Below, piece by piece: positions 39,855-58,128 of a stretch of 64,000 nt of DNA (the first letter of the stretch is position 1; every line of letters starts with the position of its first letter). A model generated the notes under the pieces. The model saw only the letters and a program-made list of their open reading frames with translations. It had not been told where the DNA came from and did no database searches. The stretch is from an uncultured Chloroflexia bacterium (GTDB lineage: Bacteria; Chloroflexota; Anaerolineae; CG2-30-64-16): contig CAVZDU010000001.1 in assembly GCA_963774265.1 (NCBI GenBank), positions 864,001 through 928,000 of the forward strand. The letters are read 5' to 3'. Made by a program: the position numbers and the translations under genes.

Positions 39855-40529
39855 TCACCGGCTGCTGCTGACGAGCTTCCACGCGCCACCGCCTTGCTCC
39901 AACTCGATCACCCGATACCCATAAGTGTTAAGCACCCGCGTCGCCTGATAGACCGTCTCAACCGTGGTGCTGCGGTTGTAGACATGCTGGTGCCCGTGGA
40001 TCAGCAACAGCGGCTGGTACTTCCGCATTAACTGCAAGTAACTCTCGAACCCCTGGTGCGGGATATCCTCACCATCGTGGATCCCGCGTGGCGGTGCGTG
40101 CGTGATCAGGATGTCCAGGTAGCGGCCGGTGCGCAGCTTGTTCAGCATCAACTTCAGGCCCAGCCGCGCGGCCTGCAGCCGCACCTCTCCTTCCGTATAC
40201 TGGAACGGCCTGTCGGGTGTGTAGCGCCGGCAGCCTTCGAGTCCGGCCAGCAGCAGCCCTCCGTGGTCGCTCCGCCGCAAGTGCAGATTGGTCGCCCAGC
40301 TAATCGTGTTATGCGCTGGGGATCCCCCAGGGTCGCTCGGCGGCATGACCCTGTCGTGATTGCCGTGGACATAGTAGAGCGGGACGTCCAGCAGCCCGAC
40401 GATGTACTCCAAATAGTAGTACGGCAAGTCGCCGCAAGCCAGGATCAGATCGATCTTCCCCACACGCTCGCGGATGTATGGGCCGTAGAGAACCGGCTCG
40501 ACCTTGTCACTGACCGTCAGAATACGCAT
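39855..40529 (-). CDS. Metallophosphoesterase
   Basis: VSD, CGDL, GNHD, THAPP, HGHQH. Confidence 0.88.
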   Translation of the reverse strand: MRILTVSDKVEPVLYGPYIRERVGKIDLILACGDLPYYYLEYIVGLLDVPLYYVHGNHDRVMPPSDPGGSPAHNTISWATNLHLRRSDHGGLLLAGLEGCRRYTPDRPFQYTEGEVRLQAARLGLKLMLNKLRTGRYLDILITHAPPRGIHDGEDIPHQGFESYLQLMRKYQPLLLIHGHQHVYNRSTTVETVYQATRVLNTYGYRVIELEQGGGAWKLVSSSR

Positions 40530-40613
40530 GCTCTCTCACGACGGGCCGGCGGACGTCACTTGCCCGGCAAGTGTGGAGTATATCATGTGGTAAAGAGGTC
40601 GTCAACGAAGGAC

Positions 40614-40753
40614 GACTCGGTTCCAGATTGTGTTGGTGGCCTTGCGGTCCGCCGGCAGCCCACTACATATGGGGTTCCGCTGGCGGCCCTTGTGGCACAT
40701 ATAGTGGCCCAATAGTGCGTACGAAACCCACCAACAGACTTTGGAACCGAGTC
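40614..40753. mobile_element. 140-bp MITE (non-autonomous IS derivative)
   Basis: 26-bp terminal inverted repeats (23/26 match; GACTCGGTTCCA...TGTTGGTGG) flanked by the 8-bp direct repeat CGAAGGAC (40606-40613 and 40754-40761). Confidence 0.85.
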
Positions 40754-40862
40754 CGAAGGACGCGGGGGGCTGCGGGGGGATTATGAGAGAGTCTCTGGGT
40801 CCGGCGGCCGCGATAATTAGCACCAGGTGCTGGTTCAGGAAGTGGTTCGGAGATCTGACGAC

Positions 40863-40891
40863 TTGACCCTCAAGTCGCAAGTGCGTATAAT
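40863..40891 (+). promoter_or_regulatory. Sigma70 promoter of the TA operon
   Basis: TTGACC-17 bp-TATAAT. Confidence 0.7.
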
Positions 40892-40925
40892 GTGGACAAA
40901 CATCATCATACTACTAGAGGTGACT

Positions 40926-41174
40926 ATGCTTAAGACGATTCAAATCACGCTCCCGCAGGAGTTGCTGCTCAAAATTGACCAGACCGTGACTGAGCTGGAG
41001 ACCAATCGCTCGGCCTTTGCGCGCCAGGCATTCGAGGATGCCCTCTTCCACCGGCGTATCGAGCAAATGGAACAGCAGGACGCCGAAGGCTATGCGCGTC
41101 GACCGCAAGACCCGGATGAGATCGCACAGTGGGAGAGCGTCCAGGACTGGGGTGATGGCTATGAAGCGCGGTGA
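40926..41174 (+). CDS. Ribbon-helix-helix antitoxin
   Basis: KTIQITLP.ELL..ID......NRS.F.R.A; overlaps the toxin start. Confidence 0.85.
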   Translation: MLKTIQITLPQELLLKIDQTVTELETNRSAFARQAFEDALFHRRIEQMEQQDAEGYARRPQDPDEIAQWESVQDWGDGYEAR

Positions 41175-41487
41175 AGTGCGCTGGGTGACCTTCGAGCACC
41201 CCGACAAGCGGCGCCCCGCAGTGATCCTGACCCGTGACTCGGCTGTTGGGTATCTGTCCACTGTTACAGTTGCATCCATCACGACCACCATTCGCCAAAC
41301 GCCATCTGCGGTGCGCCTGGGGCCGGAGGATGGGTTGCCAGAGGATTGCAGCGTGAATCTGCACAACATACAGACCGTGACGCAGACCACCGTCGGCGCT
41401 TTGATCGCGGTGTTGACCGAAAGCAGGATAGCGCAGGTCGAGTCCGCGCTGCTCTTTGCTTTAGGTATGGACCGCCATGCGCGCTGA
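41161..41487 (+). CDS. mazF: PemK/MazF-family endoribonuclease toxin
   Basis: MKRGEV.W...PDKRRPAVILTR, VA.ITT. Confidence 0.88.
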   Translation: MKRGEVRWVTFEHPDKRRPAVILTRDSAVGYLSTVTVASITTTIRQTPSAVRLGPEDGLPEDCSVNLHNIQTVTQTTVGALIAVLTESRIAQVESALLFALGMDRHAR

Positions 41488-41498
41488 CAGGTTGGGCA

Positions 41499-43426
41499 TC
41501 ACCTGCCGCTTCTTCCCTGGGGCATCAAACCCAGGATGCCGCCCCAATCGTGCCAGAACACCTTGGCCAGGTAAGAGAATGCCTCGTTCGAGGAGACCAC
41601 GAGCGACACCTCCCTGTTCAGCTTGGCGGATACCTCGCCGCCGTTGAGGCTGCCGGCCATCACCCACCCCTGCCCGCCGATCTGCGCGAGCAACATCTTG
41701 TTATGGATGCCCAGGCCCGTCGGGTTGGCGCGGCGCACCTCCAGGTCTAGCCCCTCGGCGCGGGCCACCGCGGTCAGGTATTCCGCTGTGCGCAGGTTGC
41801 TCCGCGAGCTCGCCAGGTCGTCGAAGAAGGCGTCGAGGAGCAGCCGGACGCGTGCGCCGCGGCGCGCGGCGTTGATGTAGGCCTGCAGCCGGGGATTGGG
41901 ATCGGTCTCGACGCTGCTGCTGGATGGCCCCCAAAAAGTGGGTTCATCCAACTGTTCAATTAGCAGCTCGTCGCCCGCACCTGCACGCCCGACCAGGCCC
42001 AGAAGGCAGTCAACCGTACGCAGCGAATGCTCGGGCGATTGACACACCTCAAAATGAAACCGGCCCTGGATCGCCAGCGGCTCGGGAAAACGCACAGCGT
42101 AGCGGTCACCACCACTGATCAAGATGGGCGAGAAGTCTGGCGGGGCCGCGCCCAGGTCAGGATCGGACGCGACGTAGGGCCAGACGTCGAGGTGCGTTGC
42201 ATCCATGTCGGCGGCCATGATTTCCCGAACGCGTGCCACGACGACCGGAGCATCGGTTGCCAGGTAGACGCCGCGCCGCCCCAGGGTGCCATCGGACTTG
42301 TCATCATTTGGGAATGAATCGGGGCTCGGATTTTCCGTGCCGATCAGGGCCAGCCGGTCGTCCACCAGCCACAGCTTGGCGTGCTGGTACAGGTACCGGT
42401 CGTGGATGTCGGCGCTGTTATCGGCGCGCATGTAGTAGATCTGCCCCCGGCCTCCGCGATGCGCCCGATCACCCACCGCTGCTGGTCGATGACGCCGCCG
42501 GGCGGTGCGCCCTCCAGCAGTATGATGACTGCCACGCCCTTTCGGGCCTGCTCGGCCAGGATGTCGCCGAGGGTCGCGTTTTCCAGGGTGTAGCCTTCGA
42601 AATGGATGCTGCTCGTGGCTGAGCGCAGGTGCGCGGCCAGAACGTCGAAAGCGTGGTCAGGCGCGACGAACACCTGCAACTGGGCCACTTGGTCGCCCAC
42701 TGCGGGCAGGAAGAAGCGGTCCAGCGACCCACCGGGGTAGCGCGCACGGCGGCCCCGCCAGATGTCCTCAGGATCTTGCGCCCAATCCTCAGCCGAGTCA
42801 GTGTCTGGCATGGGTAACCCGGTCCGCTCGTCAAGCTTCCTGCAGAGGATTTGGCCCTCCTGATGGAAGGCCGAGGTGGGCGTGTACGGCGCAACGCTCG
42901 CCCCGCGCCACCCACCGGCGGCCGTATCGCCTCCTTCGTAGACCAGCACATCGCTGACCTGTCCGTCAGGCCGGCTAAGGATCAGTCGACCGCCCGTGTT
43001 GGCGAATTGGAGCACGCCTCCCTTCAGGTTGGGCGTGCTGGGACTTGTATCCGTGCCGTACTCGCAGTCCGGGAGCGCGCCAAACGACTTCTTGAATGCG
43101 ACGGCCTCGCGTGCGCACCACAGCGCGCCATGGGGCGCCAGGGCGAGCCCGCCGGCGAATGTGGTTGTTCGGCTGCCGGCGGAAAGCTGCCAGCCGTCCA
43201 GGGGCACGGCGAAGTCGTTCGGGTTGTAGATCTGAAAAGCTTCGTCTGCTTCGCCGCTGACGAAGCCGTCGTGAAACAAAGCCGAGACCAGGACGGCCCT
43301 TGCTTGGGAGTTCGATATTAGGGGGAGCCGGATCATAGGTGGCGGCGCGACATCCTGGGCTGAGGCGAGCAGCGCCAGGCAACCAAGCAGTGCGACAGCG
43401 AGAGCAGCGACGAGCCGGCGAGTCAT
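41499..43426 (-). CDS. Secreted lamin-tail-domain plus phospholipase D-family protein; -1 frameshift in a G run near 42445
   Basis: Signal peptide, LTD-like region (E...IYN...VPLDGW.L), HKD-like motifs HAKLWLVD and HNKMLL. Confidence 0.8.
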
Positions 43427-43601
43427 TGGCGGCCTCCATGCGGGGTGATTAGCCCAGTATAGCACCTTAAGAGCACGCCAGGACTCATCTCCTTATATGA
43501 GACATGACCCGGCCATCTGAATGGGATCGCCGGACTGGGCGCCGGCAGGCACGACGAAGAGGCTGACCATGACCAGGACAGCTAAGTGAGCAGAGGGTCG
43601 A

Positions 43602-43830
43602 TCAGAGGGATTCGTAGCCGTTATCTGAGTGTCGTTGGTGAATCGAGAGGAGCGCACCGTGGGGACATGCCAGGACGCATGCCTTGCAGCCCAGGCAGCG
43701 GGATGAATCCACTGCGGGCAGGTCGCCGCGCTCGAACTGCATGATGGCGCGCGGTTTGCACACACGCCACCGCGGAACACGATGAGCAAGATTGGCAGAG
43801 TGCCGGTTCGACGTAGAGAGTAGGGCGCAC
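43602..43830 (-). CDS. Small 4Fe-4S dicluster ferredoxin; +1 frameshift near 43765
   Basis: Joined frames give CQSCSSC....VCKPRAI ... CLGCKACVLACPHGAL. Confidence 0.7.
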
Positions 43831-43927
43831 GAATCAACTCCGTGGGGCGGATTATAGCTTCTGCGGGGGATCGCGTGCAAACGCGTGCCAGCAGGATACT
43901 CGAACCTCAGGCCCTGTTGGCACACGT

Positions 43928-44140
43928 TCACTTGAGCAGCGGTATCTCCACCGGATCTTCCTTGGGCTGGCAAATCCCGCAGTAGAGCGCATTGCCCACC
44001 ACCAGCGCCTTCTGAACCCCCTCGTCGTTGCGGTAGAGCGCCTCGATATGCGGCAGGCTGCGAGCATGTTCGCGGCACACTCCCCGACCGCAAAACCGGC
44101 AGGCGCCCTGGGCTGGTCGATCGCAGTGCCAGCAGTTCAT
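43928..44140 (-). CDS. Small Cys-rich putative zinc-binding protein
   Basis: CWHC..P..G.CRFCGRGVC.EH ... CGIC; AGGAGG RBS. Confidence 0.75.
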   Translation of the reverse strand: MNCWHCDRPAQGACRFCGRGVCREHARSLPHIEALYRNDEGVQKALVVGNALYCGICQPKEDPVEIPLLK

Positions 44141-44168
44141 GATTCCTCCTGATTTCGGACGCGCAGAG

Positions 44169-47100
44169 CTAGGACCCTAAGTCCAGTATCCGGCGGCTGG
44201 ACTCGCGCTCCAGGCCCTGCGCCACGGCAAATTGTTCCGCCACGAGCCGGTCAAAGTCGACTTTGTCCAACGCCAGAGTGCTGATGTGGGTGAGTGCACG
44301 AGACGGACGCGGTGCGCGGCACCGACAGCAGCAGCGCGATTTCTCCTAAATATTCCCCGGGCCCGCGTTGGGCCACTGTGATCGTCTCACCTGCGCGCTC
44401 GGCCAACACCTCCACCCGTCCGGATTGGATGACGTAGAACGTTTCGCCAACCTCACCCTGGCGCATCAGGTACGCCCCAGCCAGGTAACCCTCTTCGCGC
44501 ATCTGGGCGGCGATATGCTGGATTTGCGAGCCGTCCATCTCTGCGAAGAGCGGGATGCGCCGCAGTAGCTCGGCGCGCGTCACCGACCGGTCCAGTTTGT
44601 CGCGCATGGCGAACCGGTCCTTCACCATGCGTTCGAAATCCCCGCGGCTGAGGCAGAGGAGGGTCGTGGGCACGGTGGCGACACAACTTGCTGTACGTGG
44701 CACGTCGCGCAGCAGGGCGGTTTCGCCGAAATGGCCGCCGCGCCCTAACTGATTGACGACCGCACTGATTCCTCGCTCGTCGCGCTGGCGCACCTCCACG
44801 TGCCCCTGGTGAACGATATAGAAGCGGTCCCCGGCCTCGCCCTGGCGGATGATCGCCTCGCCCGCGGCGTATCGCGTGGGGATGAGGCGCGTGGCTAATG
44901 CCGCGAGTTCGTCTTGATTCATAGTGGCGAGGAGCGGCATGCCGCGCAGGAGGAGAGTGACATCCCGATTGGTCGCGGCGAAGCCCGAGCTGAGCGCTGA
45001 GGCCCGCGGCATGAGCCGGAAGAGATACTGCGTGCCGATCTCCCGCACTTCCCACGGCAGGCCGTCGAACGCGCAGCGCAGCGCGGCGAGGGTAAAGGGC
45101 TCCCCCATCTCGGCCGCGGCCAGATCTAGCAGTGTGCTAAGCGCCGCGGCGTACGCTTCGCCCCGACGGATGAGCGGAAGATCGGGGGGCAGCGCGTCCT
45201 GCAACTGCCCCGCCCCCAGGCTCACCCGCCAGCCCGCTGCCAGGGCATAGCCGTTGAACTGCCCTGCAATCGCAGCCGCGCTGCGACGGCCCGCGATCTC
45301 GATCAGGTGGGCATGTATTCCGCCGGCCGTCGCCGCAAATGCTTGTTGCAGCCGGCGCGCGTCGCCGCTAAGCGCAAGATCGCCCTCCCGACGCGCCAGG
45401 CGGTTTTCGGCCGAGACGGCGTCGGCGGCGACCGCGCGGGTGTATGCCAGGTGGTGCAAGTAAAGCCCCGACGCCAGGAGCAGGTAGGGGAGAGCCGGTG
45501 GCAGGTGCGTGAGCGCAAAAATCGCCAGTCCCGCAAGCGCGGTCGTCACGGCGGTCCAGGCCGGCGCAGCGCGCGTCCTCCAGAACGCGGCGAGCGTGGG
45601 GATCAGCAGCGCCGCGGCCAGCCACGGAAGCTCCACCGCGTTGAACGCCAGGTATGCCGCGGCGTCGCCTCCCTTCCAGCCGGCCTGCACGAGTACGACG
45701 AATAGGCAGTAGCCCACCCCGGCGCCGAGCCCTACGGCCGCCTTTTCGGCCGCGGTCGCTTCCCGCAGGTTGGCGCCGGCAAACAGCAGCGCAGCCCCTA
45801 ACAATAGCCCGGCGCTGCTCAATAGTCCGAAAGCTGTGTGAGGGTTGCGCCATTCGCCGGCGGCGGAAGTGAGGCCAGTGAGCTCGAACAACGCGAGTGC
45901 GAGCGCGGCCGCGGCCCAAACGGTGTAGGCGGCTGCGAAGCGTGAGCCCGCATAGCCGCGGGCGCTTCGCCAGCCGAACCAGGTCGCCGCGATCAGCGCG
46001 GCAACCCCGACCAACTGCGCGACGAGCGGGTAGTCCAGCAACTCCGGCAAGGCCGCCAGAAGGGTGCTCGCGAGGAGGAGCAGTGCGAACACACGCCAGA
46101 GACTGCGGAACAGGCCGCGACGCTGGGCCGCGGCCAACCAGCCTCGGACCAGCCGGTATGGGATCGCGCCAAGGACTGCCACAAATAAGGCGCTGATCAC
46201 GACCCCGAGCAGCCCCAGCGCCCAGCGCCCGGGTCCGGCCCCGCCTTCCCATAGGCTGCGCACGCCTTGTACTAAGCGCGTCTGCCAGAAAACCAGGCCA
46301 GCGTAGACGGCGTAGACCGTCCAGGCTGCTGCCAGCAGGCCAAACACCACGAAAATCTGCTCTTCGGCCGTCAACCTGGCCCGCTGCTGTGGCTGCGCCA
46401 TGCGGGGCAGGCGCATCTCACGTACTTTTGCCGGCAGGCCGATACGCAAGAACTCCATGGATTTGCGTCGCAACTGGGAGATTCCCAGCCAATCCATGAG
46501 CAGGTAGTAACCGTCCAGTTCCAGTAGGGGGTTGAGGTTAATAAAGACCAGGATGTAGCAAGTAAAGGCGAACTTGAAGAGCAGGGGGTTGGGCGGCAGC
46601 ACCGGCCAGGCGACCATAACCAACGTGACCAGTCCGGCCAGGATCAACCCGGAGTATGGGCCAGCCCAGGTGACTGCCAGGCGCGCGCGCTTTCCCTCAA
46701 GCCACATATCGGTTGTGTCCACGAAGAACGCGGGCATACCGAAGTAGATCATCACGCCGGCCCGCCGGACCTCACGGCGGTAGTGCTTGACCGTCAGGGC
46801 ATGTGCCAACTCGTGCAGGAAAACCGCGACGAACTGGGCGGCAATGAGCATGACAAGGCCAAGTCCATATGAACCGGCTTCGCTCACCAGGCTGTATCTA
46901 CCTGATATGAACAGCTTGCCGTATAAGACCAGGCCTACCAGGCTGAGCACCACATAGAGGATCTGTGCCGGCTTGGTGAATAGCAGCCAGCCCGCGGCTT
47001 TATAGAGACGATCCAGCGCGCCGTCCAGTCCGCTGATCGCCAGGGGGGTTTGCAGGAAGGCGTGCCAGAGGCGCCCCAGGCGCACACGCAAGCGGCGTCC

Positions 47101-47508
47101 CTCCAGGCTCTCATGCACTTGCCGGTAGACGCCCACAGGTTTGTCAGTCAGGAATCCGTTGATCCTGAGCCCGGTCACTAGCCCGGCGACGCGGCCGAAC
47201 GCGAAGGAGCCGTATTGGCCAAAATAGGCCACCACCAGATCCTTCACCGTCCGCGTGCCGTCCATTAGCTCCCACAGGAAGGCATCCCGGTCGCTGAGTT
47301 GATAATAGGTTTTCGTCGTAGGGTTTTTGATAACAGTGTAAGGACCGTCCCGACCGTCCAGCCGGCTCGCGATCACGCCAGGCACAGCCTGTGGTCGGAC
47401 CATCGCCACGTCGAACCGCTCCTGCAACCATGCCCACAACCCCGTACGACCCTCATCGGGCCGTCCGGCGTCGAGCCGCAGGTTTTCCCAGAGCGATGTG
47501 GCAGCCAT
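44169..47508 (-). CDS. RRE/PqqD domain - M50 intramembrane Zn peptidase - multi-TM - two cNMP-binding domains; +1 frameshift near 44301
   Basis: YYQLS...FLWELMDGTRTVKDL (RRE-like); HELAH and NLNPLLELDGY (M50); two G..GE.ALL..PRTAS cNMP motifs; corrected C-terminus RALTHISTLALDKVDFDRL...LGS*. Confidence 0.85.
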
Positions 47509-47642
47509 GTGTCTGTTTCGCCCCTCACTCCCCTTGCGGGGATGTTCCACGCGCGGCAAGACCGACAGAGCCAAGGAGTGGAAACATTCACCTGTTTCTA
47601 CCCCTTGGACCTCAGTCGGTCAATGTATCTTTTTCGTCAGTA

Positions 47643-48596
47643 CTACACCAGCGTGCCCGGCAGCTTGCTCAGAACGATCGCGAGTTGCTGTGCGGAGAGC
47701 TGGGCTAATTGTTGTGCCGAGAGACTGGCGGCTTGTTCAGCCGTCATGGCCGACAATTGCTGGGCCGACATATGGCTGAGCTGCTCGGCGGATAGGGCGA
47801 CCATCTGCTGCGCCGACATGTGACTGAGTTGCTCGGCGGAGAGGCTGGCCATCTGCTGGGCCGACATGTGGCTCAGTTGCTCGGCGGAGAGGGCGGCCAT
47901 CTGCTGGGCCGACATGTGGCTCAGTTGCTCGGCGGAGAGGCTGGCCATCTGCTGGGCCGACATGTGGCTCAGTTGCTCGGCGGAGAGGCTGGCCATCTGC
48001 TGGGCCGACATATGGCTCAGTTGCTCGGCGGAGAGGCTGGCCATCTGCTGGGCCGACATGTGGCTCAGTTGCTCGGCAGAGAGGCTGGCCATCTGCTGGG
48101 CCGACATGTGGTTCAATTGCTCGGCGGAGAGGGCGGCCATCTGCTGGGCCGACATGTGGCTCAGTTGCTCGGCGGAGAGGGCGGCCATCTGCTGCGCCGA
48201 CATGTGGCTCAGTTGCTCGGCAGAGAGGCTGGCCATCTGCTGCGCCGACATGTGACTGAGCTGCTCGGCGGAGAGGCTGGCCATCTGCTGCGCCGATATG
48301 TGGCTGAGCTGCTCGGCCGAGAGGCTAGCCGCTTGCTGGGCTGCCTGGCTGGCAGCGGTGGCTTGGCCGCTCAAAGCTGAGAGGAGGCCGAGCGCGGTGG
48401 CCTTGGAGACGCGCTCGTCCAGGACGCCAGCGAAAGAGTCCATAGTCTCGAAATCGATAGCCTTCAATGCGGCGCTCTCGGACGCAGTCAGATCATAACC
48501 TGTCAACGCCACATCGGGCCGTGCAAACAGCGCATTGCGGAACGCGCTATCGGTCACGGCCCTGCCGATGATCGCCTCCATCGCTTGCTTGGACAT
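47643..48596 (-). CDS. NHLP-clan (Os1348/Franean1_4349-like) leader protein with long 16-aa tandem repeat region, 317 aa
   Basis: MSKQAMEAIIGRAVTDSAFRNALF..PD.AL.GYDLT..E.AAL...LDERVSK leader; AAGGAG RBS; 12 x (S/A)LSAEQLSHMSAQQMA. Confidence 0.8.
   Translation of the reverse strand: MSKQAMEAIIGRAVTDSAFRNALFARPDVALTGYDLTASESAALKAIDFETMDSFAGVLDERVSKATALGLLSALSGQATAASQAAQQAASLSAEQLSHISAQQMASLSAEQLSHMSAQQMASLSAEQLSHMSAQQMAALSAEQLSHMSAQQMAALSAEQLNHMSAQQMASLSAEQLSHMSAQQMASLSAEQLSHMSAQQMASLSAEQLSHMSAQQMASLSAEQLSHMSAQQMAALSAEQLSHMSAQQMASLSAEQLSHMSAQQMVALSAEQLSHMSAQQLSAMTAEQAASLSAQQLAQLSAQQLAIVLSKLPGTLV
47751..48326. repeat. Coding tandem repeat, 12 x 48 bp
   Basis: Near-identical 48-bp units with mostly synonymous variation and no spacers. 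Confidence 0.95.
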
Positions 48597-48695
48597 CTTG
48601 GTGCTCCTTTTTGGGCTCGAGGTGTTTATTTGTTCGACTGGCCCCATGTTACGGCAAAAGCTGCGCCCGCGCTGCGATGCGCGCCACACCGGCGG

Positions 48696-48711
48696 AGTGA
48701 TCTACATCACA
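48696..48711. promoter_or_regulatory. CRP-type binding site upstream of the leader-repeat gene
   Basis: Minus strand TGTGA-TGTAGA-TCACT, 9/10 match to TGTGA-N6-TCACA; candidate -10 TAACAT at 48646-48651. Confidence 0.75.
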
Positions 48712-48717
48712 CCCCGG

Positions 48718-49407
48718 TCAATAGTTGATCTTCCGCCACAGCCCGACGCGATCCAGGATCGTGATCTTCTGGCCGACCAACTCGATCAGACCTTGATCCC
48801 GGAAAGTCGAGAGAACCTTGTTGACCGTCTCTCGGGAACTGGCGACCCAACTCGCAAGCTCCGCCTGTGTCAGGCCCAGATCCAGCTCCAGGCCGCTCCC
48901 CCGCGGGGACTGCGCGCCGAAACGGTCAGCCAGCTCCAGGAGTCGCATGGCGACCCGGCCATTGGCGTCAAGAAAGGCCAGGCTCTCAGCGTATGCCGTC
49001 GTGTACCGCAATCGTGCGGCGAGAATCTCGAGGAGCCGCACCGCCAGGCGAGGATGATCCTCCAACTGTTGAAAGAAATCCTCCCGTCGCAGAGCTAAAG
49101 TCTGGGTAGGTTCCACCGCCACTGCACTGGCAGAGCGGGGGCGACCGTCGAGAAAACCCAGTTCGCCGATGACTTCGCCCGGGCCGTAAACGTTCAAGGA
49201 AATCTCCTGGCCGGATTCGCTGAGAATGAAGATGCGCACCCGGCCCGATTCGATGATGTAGAGGGTTTGGCCCGGGCTATCCTTGTGGAAGATGAAAACT
49301 CCCTTGCCGAATACGCGCGTCACCAGGCAAGTCGCAACTTCGGCAAGCTCTGAATCGGACAGGCCGTTAAGGAGCGAGGACTTGCGTAACTTGTCTATTC
49401 CTGGCAT
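48718..49407 (-). CDS. Crp/Fnr-family transcriptional regulator (cNMP-binding)
   Basis: GELGFLDG.PRSASA pocket; HTH LTQAELASWVASSRETVNK. Confidence 0.93.
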   Translation of the reverse strand: MPGIDKLRKSSLLNGLSDSELAEVATCLVTRVFGKGVFIFHKDSPGQTLYIIESGRVRIFILSESGQEISLNVYGPGEVIGELGFLDGRPRSASAVAVEPTQTLALRREDFFQQLEDHPRLAVRLLEILAARLRYTTAYAESLAFLDANGRVAMRLLELADRFGAQSPRGSGLELDLGLTQAELASWVASSRETVNKVLSTFRDQGLIELVGQKITILDRVGLWRKINY

Positions 49408-49442
49408 CGAGACCTCATTGCTTTCGGCGTCCTATCTTGCTT

Positions 49443-52400
49443 TCAGCCAATCATATTCAACAACCTTATCAGCGCCTCGATGTTCTTGCGTTTCCCCTCA
49501 TCACGGAGGCGCCGAGCAGCAGTCGTGAAGTAACGGTGCTCGCGGGAGAACTTCAGTTGACGACGATACCATTCAGTCTCGCTCACTGGTGCGCCAAGGG
49601 CCGCCAGTTCGGCGCGCAGGGCCTGGCTCCGGTCGAGAGCATCATCCCGACCGAGGTTATCCAGGTCAGCGTCGGCGAGGATCTCCTCGAGGGGCGTGCG
49701 TGGAGACTGCGGCAGGCGGGTGGCCAGGATCATGCCTTGCACCGCCGCCACCTGCTCCGACGTGAAGCCGAACCGGGGCAAGACCTGTGCCGCGATCTCC
49801 GCGCCGGCGCGTTCGTGTTCGTGGCTGGGAACCGTCCCCCTGGGACGTTGAACCACAAACCCGATATCGTGGTAGACGGCGCCGATCTCCAGCAGCTGCG
49901 CATCTTCGGGGCTGACCCCCACCAGGGTTGCCAGACACTGGGTCGCGGGCAGCACGTCGTCTCGTGTGTGGGCCAGGCTGTGATAGGTCAGCTCGGGGGC
50001 TAACTCGCGTTCCAGGCGGTTCAGTGCGTAACGGATCGCACCCTCAAAATCTGGCCCGGCGTGCGCAGTGCCGTCTCCGTCCCACAGGGATGGTTCCCAA
50101 TAGTAAGCGGAGCTCAGGACGGCCGACTGCGCATCCAACTCCAGGCTTTCGCAGAGGAGTTGTTCGGCCTCCCCGAAAGCGCCGTGCGCCTGGGCTTGCT
50201 TGCCGGCCGTTTCCAGGTATTCGATGGCCTTCGCCGGCTCACCGCCATGACGCCAATGATGCGCCAGGATGACGTACCAGGGTGAGAGGTCGGATCGATA
50301 GTTTTCTTCGTACTTTTCGGCGGCCCGCCGGTGAAGACGTCGCCGCTGCATGAACAGCATCGAGGTGTACGCAGCATGATGAACGGCCCCGTCTGCGAAG
50401 GCATACGACCTATCCGCCACTCCCCCCGCGCCGCAAATAAGCAAGCCCTGCTCTGCCAGGCCATCCAGGAGATCATTCAGATGCGCCTTTTCGGAGTCGA
50501 CCGGGAAGATTTCGCGGAGCATCGTGCTCACGAAGGTCGTGCCCAGGACGCTGGCCACCTTCAGCACTAATTGCTCGGACGGCGAGAGGTGATCCAGCCG
50601 ATTGCGGATCGCTGTCGAATATGGGGCCATTCCCTTCGCCTCACCAGCGGAAACACCGGTCGGACGGTAGACAACCACCGGCTGCATGAAACCCTTGACT
50701 CGAATCGGCGGCAATGCCGTGAAGGCCACCTGCCCCTGGGCTGCCCGGCAAATCTCCTCATCACACAAGATATCGCCTTCCGGCGCTGCGATCATGAGAC
50801 GCGCTGCCAGGTTGACCCGATCGCCCTGGATGCCGTAGGTGCGACGTCCCCTGCCGCCATAGGTGCCCACCAACGCCTGGCCCACGGCGACCCCGATCCG
50901 GATCGATCCCATGAACGCTAGCTCCGGCGGCGGTGAGAGCAGCTCAAGCGCAGCACAGACTGCGCGGGTCTCGTCATCGCTGTGCGCGATGGGCGCACCG
51001 AACGCAAGGCAAATATAACTCCCCTTGTCTCCCATGGTCAGGTGATCGAAGATTGCCTCGTAACCCTCGGCCACCCGTTGCACCCACCGGACATAAGCGT
51101 CGAGTTTTGTCCCCGCCTCTTCGTCCGCGTCGTAGTCGATACCTTTGAAGTTGAGGAACAATGCCGACACGGGGCGCAGCTCGGAGAGGAACTGCTTGTG
51201 GTCACTGCGGGCCCGCTCGTACACGGCAGGCAGCACCCATGGCCGGTACTCCGCATCGGAGAGGCCTTCTGTTGGCAATTCGGGCCACGGCGTGGGCGAC
51301 ACTCCTTCGACTGGGCCGCAGACGACGGCGATGGGCCTGTCCCGGTCATCTGTGCGCCATTCGCGTATGGTGAGTTGAAGGGTGCTCCGCTCGACTATGT
51401 CACCCCCCACGACAACTTCACCTCGATTGGCTGCGTGTTCGGCTGCGGCGAGCCGGTCGAGGGTCCGCCCAGCGATGGCCTCGATCACCTGGATCCCAGG
51501 ATCGCCGACCAGGAGGCGGCGCACCGGACCAGCCACGACCGCAACCTTGGCGGCCAACTCGAAGGTGGCGCCTTGGGGTGTGGTGACGGTGTTGCAGAGG
51601 GCCATCGCCTCTTGCATGGCCAGGCCGCACGCGACCGCAACCAGCTCTGCTGGCACACCTTGGGCACGTGGGAGTGATGTCGCGTCGTCAAACCAACACG
51701 TGATCGCGTCGCCGGCAAAGCCGATGACGCTGCCTCCGTAGCGGTGCACTTCGTCGATCAGCGCGGTGTAGATCTGGCTGATCGTGCGAGTCAGCTCTTC
51801 GGCGCCGCGTTCGAGCCCGAGTTCCTGCGCCAACGCCCCCGTCAGGGGGGTGAAGCCGGAGATGTCTGCGAACAGGGCCGCCCCGGTCGCCCGGTCGGGC
51901 AGGGTTTCGCCGCGCGCGAGCGCATGCTGGCGGTCCACCGGTATGTAAACGGTCAGCGGTTCGCCTTGCGCCCGTTTCATCTCCTCCATGTCGAGGCGTA
52001 ATTGCTCCAATTGCTGTCTCAGTCGTTGCTCGCGCAGGTAGACCTCGCGGGCCATACGCTGGAAGACGCGGGCCAGCCGGCCGAGGGCATCCTCGCGGGC
52101 GCCGACCGCGTCCAACGTGGCAGGATCGAAGCGGCCGGACTCCACCGCCTGGGCTGCGTCTGCCACGCGGCCTGCCTGCTCCAGGTACTCCAGCTCCAGG
52201 TCGCGCAGCCGCTTCTGTGCCAGGGACGCTTGGAGACGTGCCTGGAGCAGGGCGGGCTTGAAGGGCTTTGGCAGGTAGTCGGTTGCTCCTAGCTGGATGC
52301 AGCGGACCACGCTGTCGATTTCGTCGAGGGCCGAGATCATGATAACCGGAATGTGACGCAGGTGCGGGAGCGCCTTGACGTGGGCCAGTACCTGGTAGCC

Positions 52401-52634
52401 GTCCATCTCGGGCATCAGAATGTCCAGGAGGATCACATCGAATCCCACGGGGGTGGGTGCAAGACTCGCCCTTACCGGAGAGGGCTTTTGCTCCAACAGC
52501 GCGACGGCCTGGCGCCCATCCTCAGCGAGCGTTACGGTATAGCCCTGGTCTGTCAGGAGGCGCGCGAGTTGCTTACGGTTGACGATGTTGTCGTCGACAA
52601 CCAGGACGCGCCCGGTTCCCTGCGAGTCGGGCAT
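49443..52634 (-). CDS. Response regulator - tandem class III adenylate cyclase - helical/TPR - HD phosphohydrolase
   Basis: REC (VVDD, LLDILMP, DYLPKP); FADISGFT, FAGDA, GDKG, GDRVNLAARL; YH...H, YHDIG, DADL. Confidence 0.85.
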   Translation of the reverse strand: MPDSQGTGRVLVVDDNIVNRKQLARLLTDQGYTVTLAEDGRQAVALLEQKPSPVRASLAPTPVGFDVILLDILMPEMDGYQVLAHVKALPHLRHIPVIMISALDEIDSVVRCIQLGATDYLPKPFKPALLQARLQASLAQKRLRDLELEYLEQAGRVADAAQAVESGRFDPATLDAVGAREDALGRLARVFQRMAREVYLREQRLRQQLEQLRLDMEEMKRAQGEPLTVYIPVDRQHALARGETLPDRATGAALFADISGFTPLTGALAQELGLERGAEELTRTISQIYTALIDEVHRYGGSVIGFAGDAITCWFDDATSLPRAQGVPAELVAVACGLAMQEAMALCNTVTTPQGATFELAAKVAVVAGPVRRLLVGDPGIQVIEAIAGRTLDRLAAAEHAANRGEVVVGGDIVERSTLQLTIREWRTDDRDRPIAVVCGPVEGVSPTPWPELPTEGLSDAEYRPWVLPAVYERARSDHKQFLSELRPVSALFLNFKGIDYDADEEAGTKLDAYVRWVQRVAEGYEAIFDHLTMGDKGSYICLAFGAPIAHSDDETRAVCAALELLSPPPELAFMGSIRIGVAVGQALVGTYGGRGRRTYGIQGDRVNLAARLMIAAPEGDILCDEEICRAAQGQVAFTALPPIRVKGFMQPVVVYRPTGVSAGEAKGMAPYSTAIRNRLDHLSPSEQLVLKVASVLGTTFVSTMLREIFPVDSEKAHLNDLLDGLAEQGLLICGAGGVADRSYAFADGAVHHAAYTSMLFMQRRRLHRRAAEKYEENYRSDLSPWYVILAHHWRHGGEPAKAIEYLETAGKQAQAHGAFGEAEQLLCESLELDAQSAVLSSAYYWEPSLWDGDGTAHAGPDFEGAIRYALNRLERELAPELTYHSLAHTRDDVLPATQCLATLVGVSPEDAQLLEIGAVYHDIGFVVQRPRGTVPSHEHERAGAEIAAQVLPRFGFTSEQVAAVQGMILATRLPQSPRTPLEEILADADLDNLGRDDALDRSQALRAELAALGAPVSETEWYRRQLKFSREHRYFTTAARRLRDEGKRKNIEALIRLLNMIG

Positions 52635-52635
52635 A

Positions 52636-52995
52636 TCAACTCCTCTCCCGAATGGCCCCCAACGCGGCGTGTGCCTGCTGGTATCCTGCGGCGATGCGGG
52701 CCAGCAGGTCGGTTCCACCCTCGAGAGATCCCGCCTTGGCCAGTATCTCCAGCTCCCGGCATTGTCCCGATAGGGCCAGCGCGCCGAAGTTGGCGCAGTT
52801 GGATTTGAGGCTGTGCGCCGCGCGGCGCACAGCCTCGGCGTCACCCGCGGCCAGTCCTGCCCGCGCGACCCCCAACTGCCGGGGCGAATCCTCGAAGAAT
52901 GTGTCGAGCATTTCTCCGAAAAACTCCATGTCCCCACCGAAGCTTTCCAGAAGTCCGTCCAGCACGGTGCGGTCAATGACGTTGTCTTGTTGCAT
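52636..52995 (-). CDS. Hpt phosphotransfer protein
   Basis: AAHSLKS...FGA..LS..C.ELE. Confidence 0.9.
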   Translation of the reverse strand: MQQDNVIDRTVLDGLLESFGGDMEFFGEMLDTFFEDSPRQLGVARAGLAAGDAEAVRRAAHSLKSNCANFGALALSGQCRELEILAKAGSLEGGTDLLARIAAGYQQAHAALGAIRERS

Positions 52996-53025
52996 GATGC
53001 TTTCCCCTATCCTACACGCCACATT

Positions 53026-56000
53026 CTACGCTGTTCCCTGGCACCGAGCGAGCGCAGCCACGAGGTCTTCCACCCGGATGGGCTTGGAGAGGTAGTCATC
53101 CATGCCGGCCTCAAGGCACAGCTCCCGGTCGCCCTGCATCGCGTTGGCCGTCATGGCGATGATGCGCGGCCGGGAGTCTGCCGGCCAACGGGCGCAGATT
53201 TTCCGGGTCGCCTCCAGGCCGTCCATCTCGGGCATCTGCACGTCCATCAGGATCACGTCGTACGGCTGGCGCTCCACCGCCTGGATGGCCTCCAGTCCGT
53301 TCGCGGCCACGTCCGCGCGGTAGCCCATCTGCGCAAGTAACCGCAATGCCAGTTTCTGGTTCACTGCGTTGTCCTCGGCCAGCAGGATGCGCAGCGGATG
53401 GCGCGCCGCCATCGCGGGATCAAGCGCGGGCCGGGCTGCAGCGACGGCCGGCGCGGCCTGCGGTCGCGCGGCGAAGATGCCAGCTAGCGCATCGAACAGC
53501 GCCGAGGGCCGGATCGGCTTGGCCAGGCTGGTGGCAAAGAGGCCGGCAGGGAGGTCCTGACCATGACCGCCCAATGACGAGAGCAGGATCAAGGGCAGAC
53601 GAGGGCTGGATTGGAGATTGAAGATTGAAGATTGCTCAGCCGTCGTAGGTGCCCGATCTTCAAGCTTCGATCTTTCATCTTCAATTCGTCGTATGGCCGT
53701 CGCCAACTCCACGCCGGTCATCTCCGGCATGTGCAGGTCCAGGATCGCTACATCGAACGCGTCCCCGTGGCGCAGCCACGTCAGCGCCTCGAGGGGTGAA
53801 CCGGTGGCACACGAGAGCATCCCCCAGCCCTGGGTCTGGAGCGTAAGGATGCGCCGGTTCGTGGCGTTGTCGTCCACGATCAAGACGCGGCGGCCAGCCA
53901 GTTGCAACTGCACGTCGGCCAGGTGGGGCCGCGGATGAAAGTCGGGGGCCGGCCGGGCAGCAATCGTGAAATGAAAGGTCGAACCCTGGCCTGCGCCCGC
54001 GCTCTCCGCCCACATCATGCCGCCCATCATCTCTGCCAGCCGCTTGCTCACCGCCAGCCCGAGACCGGTGCCGCCGTAACGCCGCGTGGTGGAGGCATCC
54101 ACCTGGGAAAACGCCCGGAATAGTCGATCCAGCCGGTCGGCCGGGATGCCGATGCCGGTGTCGCGGATGGCGAAGTGGAGGCTGTACCTCTCCCCCAGGC
54201 CCTCCCCGCGCAGGGGAGGGGTGAGGGGTGGGGTCCGTTCTACGGTCATCACAACCTCGCCCGTTTCGGTGAACTTGATCGCATTGCTCAATAGATTGAC
54301 CAGGATCTGGCGCAGACGGGTGACGTCGCCGACGATGACCGCGGGCACGTCGGCGGCTATCTGGTAGGCCAGCTCCAGCCCCTCCCCCGCGGCCTTGATG
54401 TGCAGCAGGTCCAGCGCCGACTCCACGCATTCGCGCAGGTCGAAGGGCTGCTGCTCCATCTCCATCTTGCCGGCCTCAATCTTCGAGAAATCCAGGATGT
54501 CGTTGATGATGGTCAGGAGCGCGTCGCCGCTAGACCGGATGGTCTCCGCGAAGTCGCGCTGCTCGGCGTTCAGGGGCGTGTCCATCAGCAGACCGCTCAT
54601 GCCGATGATGGCATTCAGCGGCGTGCGGATTTCGTGGCTCATCGTCGCCAGGAACGCGCTCTTGGCCTGCGTCGCCGCTTCGGCGGTGGCCTTCGCCTGT
54701 CGTAGCTCCACCTGCGCCCGTTTCTGCTCCTCCAGGAGTTGGTAATTCTGGACGAGAACGGCTGTCTGGCTGCTGATCGCTTCGGCAAGTTGCGCATCAT
54801 GCCGGCCGATGTCAGCTCCGTCGGATGGTCGTCCCAAGCACACCACCCCCACTGCCTGCTGCTGGGAGTTGCTGATGGGTGCGATCACCAGCTTGCCGAG
54901 AGCTCGCCGCGATTCGCCCCGCATTCCAAACAAGCTCCTCTCGCTGGTCAATGGGTCATTGATGACCAGGTAGCGGCCCTCGAGCACGCACTGCGCTGCC
55001 AGATCGCCGGCAGTGTGGCCGCACACCTCGAACTGCATCAGGTCAGCGGGGAGGCCGGGGAAGTGTCCGGCGATGCCGCGCAAGGCGTCCGGGCCTTCGG
55101 TCACCTGGTTGTCGTCGGATCGGTTCACCAGAGCAACCCACCAGCGATCCATGTCGACCGATTGGAACATGGACAGCAGCGCTTTCCGCCCCATGTCATA
55201 GTCTGCGGATAGCACCCGATAGGGCACGACGGACATATCGGGGAAGCAGGCTGCAATCTCTTCCGAGAAACCTTGAGCGCGTTGGCGAGCGGTGTACAGG
55301 TCTGAGTAGATAACGGCCACGCGCCCCCGGCCGCCCAATCGATGACTCAGGAAACGGGCTGCCAGGCGCCCGCCACCGCGATTGTCGGCGCCTACATGCG
55401 TGGCAACTTCTACCCCTGCCATTGGCTGATCCAGGGACACGACCGGTATGCCCCGTTGCAGCGCGCGCTGCGCTACGGGCGCGAGCGTGTACTCATTCAG
55501 GGGCACCAGGATCAACGCATCGATGCCGGCGGCAAGCATCTCTTTGACGGCAGCCGCCTGCTCCAGGGCCCGCGTCTCGTGATGTCCCGCCAGGATCAGT
55601 TCGACGCCGGCCTCCGCAGCCGCCATCTGCACTCCGTCGCGAATCTCGCGATAGCCGGCATTTGTCTCATAGTCGCCCAACGCCACACCCAGGGTATACC
55701 GCCGGCTCACCGTCGGCATGATGGCCGGGTCAGTTACGATGGGCTGTTCACCGTCGGTTATGAGTTGCACGGGGAGCAGGACCTCGGCTCCCATCGGCAG
55801 ACCCTCCAACGCCTGCAACGCGGCGATGACCCCGCGCCGTCCGAGTTCGCCCAGGTCTTGCCCGATCGTGGCGCACAGCTTTCCGGCGCGCAGCCCGTCC
55901 CGTCCCAGGTCCGACGCGTTGTAGCCTATCGCCCGAAGATCGTCGTGGCCCAGCTCCCGAGCCGTCTCGATCGCAGCCAACGCCATTTCGTCGTTGACCG

Positions 56001-58128
56001 CAAACACCGCCTCAACGCCGGTGCCCACCTCCAGCACGCCGTCGAACAGGCCGCTCAGGGTCTCAGGCAGGTTTTCGCTGAGCTTCCCAAATCGGCTGAC
56101 CCGGTATAACGCAGTGGCCTGGGCAATCTCCCGGTGCAACTCCTCTTCGGCCTGCTTGCGCTCGGTGATGTCGCGGATGATTTCGATCGCGCCGACGGCA
56201 TTGCCCTCAGCGTCGCGCAGGACGGATGCGGTGCCCATCAGATAGTGCGCACTTCCCCGCAAACGCGGCGCGTAGGTTTCGCCGACCAGGACGGAACCAT
56301 GCCGCTGGATCTGGGCGTGTTCTTTGTCCAGATCCTCCTGCGATTTGAACACCAGGTCGATCAGGATCGGCTGTCGCTTGCCGTAGAAGGGGAGGGCGTA
56401 TTCGTAGTCACCCTTGCCCAGTATCTCCTCCGCCGGGATCCCCGTCATCTCTTCAATGGCCCGGTTCCAGGCGATGACGCGGCCTTCCCCGTCAATCACG
56501 ACCGTTGCATCGGGCAGGAAGTTGATGATGTCGGTCAACCGGCGCTGCGTCTCCTGGGCGGTCGAGTAGAGTCGCGCATTGTCCAGGATGACGGAAGCGA
56601 GCTGGGCAAAGCGGCTCAGGAGTTCTGCCTCCTCCGCGCCGAAGCTCCGGCTTGATTCCGCGCCATACGCCAGGCCGATGACGCCCACAACATGCTCGCC
56701 GGAGGTGAAAGGCACGCCCATGATGCCGCGCATCACACCGCGATCGAACGTTGCTAAGCGGCCGGACCAGGCGTCGTAGTCGTCGATGACCACAGGGTGA
56801 CCTGTCTGCCAAACCGTCCCCACCAGGCCATCCCCCGGCTTCCTATATTCGCCGACCAACCGAGCGAGCGCACCGATGCCGACCTTGCACACCATCTCCG
56901 CTTTCCCTGGATCCAACAGATAGAGGAACCCATGCGGCGCATGCAGCAGTTGGCTAGCTCGCGTGATCAGCGTCTCCAGTAGCTCGTTCACGTCCAGCCG
57001 GCTGATCAGCCCCACGGTCGTCTCGTATAAAGCGGCCAGGTACTGATTTTGCCGCACCATCTCTTCCAGGAGTGCGTCCCGTTCGCGGTTGGCCTCTTTC
57101 GCGACGACTTGGGCCTGCTTCTGTTCGGTCATATCGCGCAACAGCAGCAGGTGTCCGACGATCAGCCCGCGATAATCCTTGAGTGGGGAGAGATCCGGAG
57201 CGTAGTACCGGGCGCCGGAACCCCCCAGGCTGATTTCGGTTGGCTCTGCCACCCCCCCGGCAAGCTGTTCGATGAGATCGGGGCATGCCGGCAGGAGATC
57301 CTGCAATGTTTTGCCGCGGGCCCGCGCGGCTGAAGTAGACAACATGCTTGCCGCCGCGGGGTTCAGGTCGGCGATTCGCCACCGGGCATCCAAGATCACC
57401 ATCCCTTCGCGCATCTGCGCGATCACCGTTTTGCGGGCAGCGTGCAACTGGTCGAAGATGCGGAAGCCGAACAGTGCGATGGCATATGATCCGAAGAGGA
57501 GTGCCAATTCGATAATGAGGGGGTCCAGCGCATTTGTAAGTCTCACGTTGACGACGTCCAGCGCGTACACGACCCGGCCCACAATCATCCCGAACACCAT
57601 CAGCGCCACCGGCAGGCGATGCTGCGGCGAGCGGACGAACAGCCAGAGGAAAGCGGCGATATTGACCAGGATGAGGCTCATTCCATAGCCGGTCCCGATT
57701 CGGTTGCCAATGCCGCGTAGCGGTTGGACAGCCCCATCGACCGCGAACCCGAGCCACATGAGGTGATGGAGATCGTTGGTGATGATCAGCAACAGGCCCA
57801 AGAGGGGAGGAATAGACAGCAGGATCAGGTTGCGGCGGGTCAGCCAGCGTCCGGGGTAGGCATACTCCAGAGCAAAACAAGCCCCGGCGGTGACCAAGGG
57901 CAACTGCCACACCCCTTGGAACTTGAACCAGGCGATTCTCGTCGAAACATCGCCTGCCGCCGATTCAGCGACTGCGCCTGCCAGCCACAGAAACGCGAAC
58001 AGGCAGGCGATCGCGACCGGCTTCGCGCCGGGTACGCTGCGGCGCCGCCAAACGTACAAGCCCAAGGTGCCCAGGAATACCAGAACAGCCAGTCTCGGCC
58101 ATGTGTTGGGCATAGCAAAAAGATCCAT
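53026..58128 (-). CDS. Hybrid histidine kinase: 7TM-PAS-GAF-PAS-GAF (with inserted permuted sugar-binding domain)-HisKA-HATPase-REC-REC
   Basis: [37 protein letters not shown], two receiver domains. Confidence 0.92.

Follow-up and report, generated by a model that had tools for sequence, protein, structure and literature searches.

In a 64,000-nt stretch of an uncultured Chloroflexia bacterium (GenBank assembly GCA_963774265.1, contig CAVZDU010000001.1, positions 864,001 to 928,000 of the forward strand; hereafter the window), we describe a minus-strand gene that joins a folded leader domain, of the kind borne by predicted precursors of ribosomally synthesized, post-translationally modified peptides (RiPPs), to a 12-unit tandem repeat that is probably an alpha-helical screw. 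Its neighbors include a Crp-family regulator and a predicted site-2-type membrane protease with two cyclic nucleotide-binding (CNB) domains. We propose that the product is a leader-tagged structural protein, matured by the neighboring protease, which resembles a RiPP recognition element (RRE)-bearing enzyme, under cyclic nucleotide monophosphate (cNMP) control, and we put the probability of this reading at about 0.5. It is preferred over a multi-core precursor and a metal binder because the leader, its terminal motif, the regulator with its binding box and the protease are conserved, whereas the cargo varies and is repeatedly rod-forming. A preliminary description, made from the sequence alone, had offered three options for the repeat: a precursor releasing near-identical peptides, a helical solenoid or filament targeted by its leader, and a soft-metal (Cu/Ag) binder. 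Our analysis favors the solenoid and weakens the other two.

Leader domain and probable helical-screw repeat

The preliminary description gave no strand for the gene. The reading frame lies on the minus strand, from an ATG at 48596 to a stop at 47643-47645, and encodes 317 residues that open with MSKQAMEA, a start common to close homologues; plus-strand open reading frames (ORFs) overlying the array DNA are shadows of the repeat. The N-terminal 65 residues are a small all-helical Os1348/Franean1_4349 domain. Residues 4-64 pass both NF038399, 'Os1348 family NHLP clan protein' (71.1 bits, cut-off 40), and PF14407, the Franean1_4349 or 'Frankia_peptide' family (52.4 bits, cut-off 48), and a profile of 90 family members retrieves the Os1348 crystal chain 6lk7_A (E = 4.4e-9), followed by nitrile hydratase alpha chains from E = 7e-5 and, weakly, two NHLP leader chains. 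AlphaFold2 (AF2) models residues 1-90 with a predicted local distance difference test (pLDDT) of 92-98, and Foldseek places 6lk7 chains at ranks 1-3 for the leader model (probability 1.00, E = 4e-3 to 1.4e-2, target template-modeling (TM) score 0.67-0.78, root-mean-square deviation (r.m.s.d.) 2.1-2.7 Å over 64-68 columns). The earlier suggestion of an NHLP-clan leader ending LDERVSK is borne out by these profile and structure matches; as to its proposed comparison of the N-terminus with NHLP/Os1348 profiles, NF038399 and PF14407 recognize the domain and the classic NHLP leader model TIGR03793 does not (14 bits, cut-off 50.9), a Gly-Gly motif being absent as well. Conservation within the family stops at L-[DE]-[ED]-R-[IV]-S-[KR] and gives way to a brief Ala/Ser/Gly/Leu-rich stretch; here, the linker opens with the small, mildly hydrophobic ATALGLLSAL, and such a stretch follows S-[KR] family-wide. 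The window's genome contains one leader gene. A literature search on the name Franean1_4349 found nothing, and PF14407 turned up as a family name only.

Two groups of known proteins frame this domain. Os1348 of Pseudomonas sp. Os17 is described as an 85-aa protein that crystallized as a dimer and contributes to antibiotic activity; its reported neighbors are a GNAT, a gluzincin-type HExxH peptidase and a SagB-type dehydrogenase, its control is by Gac/Rsm and its mature form is given as not known (PMC7726476). The two proteins share the N-terminal domain by profile and fold, an adjacent HExxH peptidase gene and membership in a family seen as a precursor-like small protein (PMC7726476). They differ in that a 252-aa repeat tail stands here where Os1348 has no long tail, and in that the gene considered here adjoins a site-2 peptidase with cNMP domains, has no GNAT or SagB and appears to be under Crp control. 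Precursors of the NHLP/Nif11 type (proteusins and prochlorosins) are likewise described as having an extended, structured leader akin to nitrile hydratase alpha; the leader is conserved and the C-terminal part is hypervariable (PMC2887384, PMC12537861, PMC12455567). Our protein departs from them in falling below the TIGR03793 cut-off, in lacking the Gly-Gly site, a Cys-rich short core and a nearby C39 transporter, and in carrying a predicted folded repeat domain as cargo. Haft 2010 (PMC2887384) makes no mention of cyclic nucleotides.

Tandem Repeats Finder detects a single array (47758-48341, period 48, 12.2 copies, 92% matches, 0 indels, score 923). In the protein register, residues 91-282 form 12 units of 16 residues, followed by three degenerate 8-residue units and a cap, and every 16-mer consists of two 8-mers, SAEQLSHM and SAQQMA[SA]L, in agreement with the alternating halves first described. 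The absence of Cys and of a Gly-Gly site, also noted then, holds for the full 317 residues, which include 12 His and 26 Met (one His and two Met per unit). Measured against the unit consensus, the central units 6-10 differ by 0-2 nt, units 3 and 4 by 2 nt and units 1, 2, 5, 11 and 12 by 4-10 nt. This table supports a recent growth of the array through duplication of central units, which the near-identity of the DNA units had already suggested. Codon differences across units 1-12 comprise 21 synonymous and 9 non-synonymous changes.

The repeat passes the ALTTAQ repeat model PF20080 (52.7 bits, gathering cut-off 26.4) over nine stretches with an 8-residue period; a PF20080 profile search of the window's own genome gave no match, which we take as a search miss since the protein passes in hmmscan. 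Among Protein Data Bank (PDB) chains, phmmer finds the designed protein HeliScrew4 (9zem_A, E = 2.4e-16, a value that arises from low-complexity repeats), described as an alpha-helical screw of 8-residue repeats solved at 2.2 Å (bioRxiv 10.64898/2025.12.04.691947). In that alignment, the repeat Ser falls on the N-cap Thr/Ser, Leu and Met fall on core Ile/Leu and the repeat His falls at a surface position. Given an alignment of six ALTTAQ proteins, AF2 predicts residues 91-317 with a mean pLDDT of 93.4 and a predicted TM score (pTM) of 0.81, as 27 helices, mostly of five residues (4-8) and about 3 residues apart. A VIA-align comparison with 48,161 chains ranks 7qlr_A first (Z 8.1, below the level that the tool advises for helical repeats; r.m.s.d. 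4.5 Å, 225 aligned; next match Z 6.7), and 7QLR is the only natural example of a helical screw that the HeliScrew preprint gives (bioRxiv 10.64898/2025.12.04.691947). On these models, the repeat is probably an alpha-helical screw with Leu/Met side chains in the core and one surface His every 16 residues; because the VIA Z lies under the advised level, we call the assignment probable, not proven. The Met would be a packing residue, since it aligns with core Leu/Ile of HeliScrew4 and is replaced by Leu or Phe in the homologue P0004, in which the His is kept, as it also is in two further relatives (P0002 and L103).

The array shares with HeliScrew4 (9ZEM), the phage CDHS-1 receptor-binding protein (7QLR) and PF20080 the 8-residue period, the N-cap Ser/Thr and the two core hydrophobic positions. 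It differs from HeliScrew4 in having Ala rather than Pro at N1, in being much longer than the 120-aa design and in its fusion to a RiPP-type leader. A continuous helix forming a coiled coil was considered and rejected, as hydrophobic positions recurring every 8 residues drift by about 80 degrees per repeat around an ideal alpha-helix and leave no straight stripe. An ESM Atlas search with residues 88-317 reached a top score of 0.82, below the level at which the tool treats a match as more than a lead, and its matches are ALTTAQ clusters. ALTTAQ repeats are a general structural repeat found in many non-RiPP proteins, with hundreds of bacterial and phage protein clusters. They occur in 2 of the 90 leader-family members scanned, and the fusion of leader and ALTTAQ repeat is confined to this lineage (P0002, P0004 and L103). 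A literature search on the name ALTTAQ found nothing. As a separate observation, HeliScrew4, though designed, detectably resembles natural ALTTAQ (PF20080) in sequence; judged by sequence, the alpha-helical screw may be much commoner in nature than the preprint's single PDB example.

A conserved cassette with cyclic nucleotide-binding domains in Chloroflexota

By its motifs, the 1085-aa product encoded directly downstream is a site-2-type protease. HELAH at 232 and NLNPLLELDG at 324 lie inside or at the edge of predicted transmembrane (TM) segments, and H232, E233, H236 and N324/N326-P327...D332 are invariant among 27 aligned protease sequences. Its best curated match is NF041824, the daptide RRE-S2P (site-2 protease) leader peptidase (143.2 bits over residues 82-434, below the equivalog cut-off of 300), and its two cNMP-binding domains (133.6 bits) resemble the regulatory subunits of PKA and PKG. 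Of 8000 candidates scored, at least 839 belong to this protease family at E <= 0.001; they are mostly of about 1100 aa and from metagenome-assembled genomes (MAGs) of Anaerolineae/Chloroflexota. A scan of species-representative genomes yielded 197 protease relatives, of which the best 80 loci were analyzed by searching their six-frame ORFs with a leader hidden Markov model built from our own alignment and with the window's proteins.

These loci define a conserved cassette in the order Crp, CRP box, leader protein or proteins, an optional M16 peptidase, the PqqD-like/S2P/two-CNB membrane protease and a Cys-rich protein. A leader-domain ORF is present in 28 of the 80 loci and lies upstream of the protease on the same strand in 20, all of which belong to a protease clade 42-58% identical to the window's protein. 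A syntenic Crp homologue accompanies the protease in 18 loci (17 at 46-64% identity, one at 35%). Some loci, L032, L038 and L094 among them, start too near the protease for upstream genes to be judged. An M16 peptidase occurs in 12 of the 80 loci, between leader and protease in 11 of these 12, and was confirmed in L021 by PF00675 and PF05193; the cassette-type M16 is absent from the window's genome, whose M16 genes are 26-27% identical and lie on another contig. The Cys-rich protein adjoins the protease in 31 of the 80 loci, nearly always downstream, and the 70-aa example in the window, which has several CxxC pairs, matched no curated family. It is also found in clades without a leader gene and may be the protease's more constant partner. 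Within the same genus, the protease is present in 2 of 8 genomes (75-90% complete), and the cassette is for that reason regarded as accessory.

The gap between the Crp and leader genes carries the evidence for regulation. A CRP box pattern (TGTGA-N6-TCACA, at most one mismatch) has a single match in the 64-kb window, within this 121-nt gap; a single match at some point in the window is what chance predicts (75 of 100 shuffles), and it is the position that carries the weight. The box recurs in 16 of 18 related Crp-leader windows, each starting 60 nt ahead of the Crp stop and running to 260 nt beyond the leader ORF start; the 18 loci are those with both Crp and leader genes, L024 and L028 being excluded for having no Crp on the fetched piece. 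Together, those windows contain 22 of the 44 CRP sites in the 986,404 nt of all 80 loci. Six related cassettes have a second box 23 nt on, the same spacing as that of a degenerate box in the window (Table 1). A direct Crp-family input to the leader gene is well supported by these recurring patterns, and the neighboring cyclase is the probable source of the cNMP signal. No sigma-70-like site came out of a promoter and terminator scan covering 43800-49700, in which terminator-like sites stood at chance level.

Other cyclic-nucleotide genes accompany the cassette. Related cyclase or HD genes adjoin it in several loci. In two loci, a stand-alone protein 61-63% identical to the HD end of the window's cyclase lies between two leader genes (L023:4747-5478 and L044:4274-5233), and these sequences hint that an HD domain, a possible phosphodiesterase, is part of the module. 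Additional cNMP-binding-domain proteins follow the Cys-rich gene in L021 (9635-10147) and L023 (9793-11043), and cyclic-nucleotide parts are enriched around the cassette.

Table 1. Coordinates of the gene, its parts, the associated boxes and the adjoining genes in the window
Feature	Position	Strand	Evidence or remark
Whole gene, 317 aa + stop: Os1348-type leader domain, linker, probable helical-screw repeat, cap	47643..48596	-	
Os1348/Franean1_4349 (NHLP-clan) folded leader domain, residues 1-65, C-terminal end LDERVSK	48402..48596	-	NF038399, PF14407, AF2, Foldseek
Linker rich in Ala/Ser/Gln, residues 66-90; modeled as helix	48327..48401	-	
12 units of 48 nt/16 aa = 24 ALTTAQ-type 8-residue units, residues 91-282	47751..48326	-	Tandem Repeats Finder, unit table, PF20080, AF2 pLDDT 90-97
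Three degenerate 8-residue units + C-terminal cap (...VLSKLPGTLV), residues 283-317	47646..47750	-	Cap kept in P0002, P0004
AGGAG ribosome-binding site, 7 nt 5' of ATG	48604..48608	-	Read from sequence
CRP-type box TGTGATGTAGATCACT between Crp gene and leader gene	48696..48711		Pattern match
Second, degenerate box, 2 mismatches, starts 23 nt after first	48673..48688		Read from sequence
1085-aa membrane protein: soluble N-domain, site-2-protease core, about 13 TM segments, two C-terminal cNMP-binding domains	44251..47508	-	Directly downstream
70-aa Cys-rich (CxxC-type) protein, downstream of protease gene	43928..44140	-	
Crp/Fnr-family regulator: cNMP-binding domain + HTH_Crp_2	48718..49407	-	
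Receiver/adenylate-guanylate cyclase/HD-domain protein, start set at MPDSQ...	49443..52631	-	

Genes for an Hpt protein and for a hybrid histidine kinase also lie upstream. Among 10 neighboring products (39855-58128), Pfam and NCBIfam scans found no modifying enzyme; these products comprise only regulators, peptidases, signaling proteins, a PLD/LTD gene and a phosphoesterase. Elsewhere in the window, two small overlapping ORFs on the plus strand (40827-41487) resemble, on visual inspection alone, a ribbon-helix-helix antitoxin and a toxin of the PemK/MazF type.

Variable tails, proposed maturation and rival readings

What follows the leader changes completely between orthologous cassettes; conservation is limited to the leader and the motif L-[DE]-[ED]-R-[IV]-S-[KR]. 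The orthologous tails span about 3 to about 300 residues. Tails of a few residues occur in L024 (three genes), L029, L039, L049 and L068. At the other end of the range, L045:3180-4442, from an uncultured Chloroflexia MAG contig, joins the leader to some 300 Gly-X-Y residues, which score 117.5 bits with the collagen triple-helix family PF01391 and also resemble collagen-like adhesin models, below their cut-off. Between these extremes, L025:465-1283 has 12 copies of a 13-aa repeat (GVPAIDRGGEELT), L022:3991-4509 and L031:4937-5905 have Ala-rich repeat tails and L035:9566-10510 has a Pro-rich tail; the L025, L022, L031 and L035 proteins matched no Pfam family beyond PF14407. A leader-only search gave 587 cluster representatives at E <= 0.001, and in the 152 proteins examined (the query, P0002 and 150 listed), the tail has at most 10 aa in 30, 11-40 in 79, 41-100 in 27 and more than 100 in 16, with a median of 28 aa. 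Cys occurs in 24 of these 152 tails, and 6 of the 72 tails of at least 30 aa are periodic over their whole length. A sub-group of the leader family (P0041, P0043, P0044, P0054, P0059, P0087, P0092 and P0114) has a leader ending ERISMSL and differing repeats between the leader and a shared C-terminal motif, W-L-x-R-L-A-x-x-L-G...Y, in the manner of a variable-length spacer.

We envision the following course for the leader-tagged structural protein. cNMP from the adjacent receiver-cyclase would activate the Crp paralogue at the CRP box and so turn the gene on. The site-2-type protease would receive the leader domain at its N-terminal, cytoplasmic PqqD-like domain and, gated by its two cNMP-binding domains, would cut the small/hydrophobic stretch just after S-K and free the rod, the presumed product. 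By analogy, leader removal would parallel that in daptides, whose leaders are reported to be removed by an RRE-S2P enzyme, an RRE-dependent intramembrane peptidase (10.1101/2023.03.08.531785). Like the daptide peptidase MpaP, the window's protease has an N-terminal domain, here a putative RRE-like one, followed by an S2P core (10.1101/2023.03.08.531785). It differs from MpaP by about 8 extra TM segments and the two cNMP-binding domains, and daptide features are otherwise lacking: the scanned neighbors include no aminotransferase, methyltransferase or dehydrogenase, and the 317-aa protein ends in Val, not Thr. Another site-2 protease, SpoIVFB, carries an ATP-binding CBS domain. The analogy here is that an S2P with a cytoplasmic nucleotide-sensing domain matures a pro-protein, taking an N-terminal pro-sequence off the non-membrane protein pro-sigma-K (PMC11486902); the systems differ in the regulatory domain (CNB versus CBS) and in the absence of a sigma factor here, and the comparison is made at the level of the S2P core.

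A number of points weigh against this proposal. Maturation and docking are proposals made from sequence. The protease scores below the Pfam M50 cut-off (15.2 against 27.2), and its residues 81-123 match PqqD weakly (E = 0.0022, 18.7 bits, cut-off 23.4). A predicted complex of protease residues 1-430 with leader residues 1-100, run without controls, scored 0.18 (mark 0.32) and counts neither for nor against docking. No export system is evident in the cassette. The protease clade at 34-37% identity mostly keeps the Cys-rich protein and has few leader genes in the flanks fetched, none directly upstream, and the clade at roughly 30% has neither, from which it follows that the protease need not depend on leader proteins. 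On the structural side, the predicted fold of the repeat depends on the alignment used: a first AF2 run, with a family alignment in which 2 rows cover the repeat, gave one long helix (pLDDT about 50-85, pTM 0.34). Foldseek of the repeat model against the PDB found nothing above TM 0.37, and the helix-initiating Pro at N1 stressed by the HeliScrew preprint is Ala in the repeat; the low-complexity origin of the HeliScrew4 E-value and the modest VIA Z count here as well.

The variable tails also lend themselves to a different account, which we consider unlikely: the N-terminal domain could be the working part, as a partner, regulator or decoy of the protease/cNMP module or as an oligomerization domain, with the tail an unreleased, fast-evolving appendage or spacer. 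Of the 152 family proteins, 30 have at most 10 residues after the domain, conservation ends directly after S-[KR], Os1348 is itself described as an 85-aa dimer (PMC7726476) and other clades have the protease without leader genes. However, the tail appears constrained: its unit differences are mostly synonymous, its cap is kept in P0002 and P0004 and its predicted fold is well packed. The repeated, independent capture of rod-forming repeats (helical screw and collagen) likewise suggests that the cargo matters. The multi-core idea of the preliminary description, in which the leader would guide peptidases that cut the array into many near-identical linear or modified peptides of 8 or 16 residues, seems to us improbable. 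It can draw on the RiPP-clan leader, the 12 near-identical units with their largely synonymous differences, the adjoining peptidase and the second, M16 peptidase of some related loci, but that M16 gene is missing from the window's cassette, and neither the cassette nor the scanned neighbors supply a modifying enzyme. In cyanobactin- or microviridin-type multi-core precursors, each core is flanked by recognition or cleavage sequences, whereas the units here are contiguous, with no spacers, recognition or cleavage sequences or Gly-Gly. The repeat, moreover, occurs in many non-RiPP proteins and folds with high confidence in the model, and the orthologous tails, which include collagen and non-repetitive sequence, are unrelated or nearly absent.

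More improbable again is a metal-binding or storage protein that would use the His and Met of each unit (for Cu/Ag or another metal), in essence a His ladder. The regular His and Met content prompted this idea, and the conservation of the His in P0002, P0004 and L103, together with its alignment to a surface position of HeliScrew4, would allow a ladder of 12 His along the rod. The proposed Cu/Ag binding through Met loses ground, however, as each of the two Met positions corresponds to core Leu/Ile in HeliScrew4 and carries Leu or Phe in P0004; furthermore, the cassette and scanned neighbors hold no metal transporter, chaperone or metal-sensing regulator, and the orthologous cassette tails show no His/Met pattern. 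We also weighed whether the array length is an artifact of assembly, with units collapsed or inflated, and hold this to be very improbable. Thirteen public sequencing runs, all available as Logan contigs and with no RNA run listed among them, reach a best word share of 0.22; in four examined at 88% likeness, no piece spans the array, the pieces inside it measuring 66-126 nt, and the contig of L103 breaks within the array too. The adjacent PLD-like gene seems frameshifted, a possible sign of assembly errors. Against an artifact, the longest exact duplicate inside the array is 69 nt and most units have their own substitutions, so that ordinary reads could in principle order the units; the array has no indels, its frame stays open and the contig is 1.5 Mb long.

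The leader-tagged structural protein remains the reading that we prefer. The copy number of the repeat may vary. The homologues P0002 (181 aa, leader 92% identical) and P0004 (162 aa, leader 86% identical) have about 3-4 units each and stem from metagenome contigs of short length or from a library that gives no context; a metagenome scan added one close relative, L103, and two unrelated ALTTAQ loci. The variable copy number anticipated by the preliminary description is suggested by these sequences and is put no more strongly, given that the contigs of the relatives are short or stop within it. Separately, the ORFs for a lamin-tail-domain protein (42344-43465) and the PLD-like protein (41499-42476), both on the minus strand, overlap by 133 nt in different frames, and the end of the former reads as an out-of-frame translation of the start of the latter; a single gene, broken by a frameshift or by an error of assembly, is the probable origin of the two.

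Significance

Both protein families involved are known and would be named automatically. Their fusion, the repeat and collagen tails and the Crp/RRE-S2P-CNB cassette are apparently unpublished: we found no literature on the leader-ALTTAQ fusion, on such tails or on this cassette, nor on an RRE with a cyclic nucleotide-binding domain and a metalloprotease, in searches whose coverage leaves out most subscription journals and supplements. Automatic annotation would stop at 'Franean1_4349 family RiPP' or Os1348-family protein. In one large clade, however, the leader goes together with a Crp regulator, a CRP box that is conserved and a site-2 protease with cNMP-binding domains, and the assumption of a small-peptide product is called into question there, given that the scanned neighbors include no modifying enzyme and that tails range from a few residues to rod-forming domains. 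L045 is an example of a RiPP-type leader on a bacterial collagen.

A wider generalization is possible, and we offer it tentatively. The Chloroflexota Os1348/Franean1_4349 'RiPP' cassettes may form a cNMP-switched pro-protein system rather than small-peptide pathways, in which the folded leader would serve as a detachable handle for an RRE-bearing site-2 protease to read, keeping back or delivering fibrous cargo of protein size (for example helical screws, collagen triple helices and Ala-rich rods) until a cyclic-nucleotide signal arrives. If true, this would be RiPP logic applied to structural proteins. The cassette would also lend itself to experiments on proteolysis that is guided by a leader and gated by a second messenger, with a protein as substrate. 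Finally, a long natural 8-residue helical screw, similar in sequence to a solved design, would bear on the claim that the fold is nearly absent from nature; if that reading holds, the ALTTAQ family would be a large natural reservoir of the alpha-helical screw, a fold that the 2025 preprint describes as seen once in the PDB (bioRxiv 10.64898/2025.12.04.691947).

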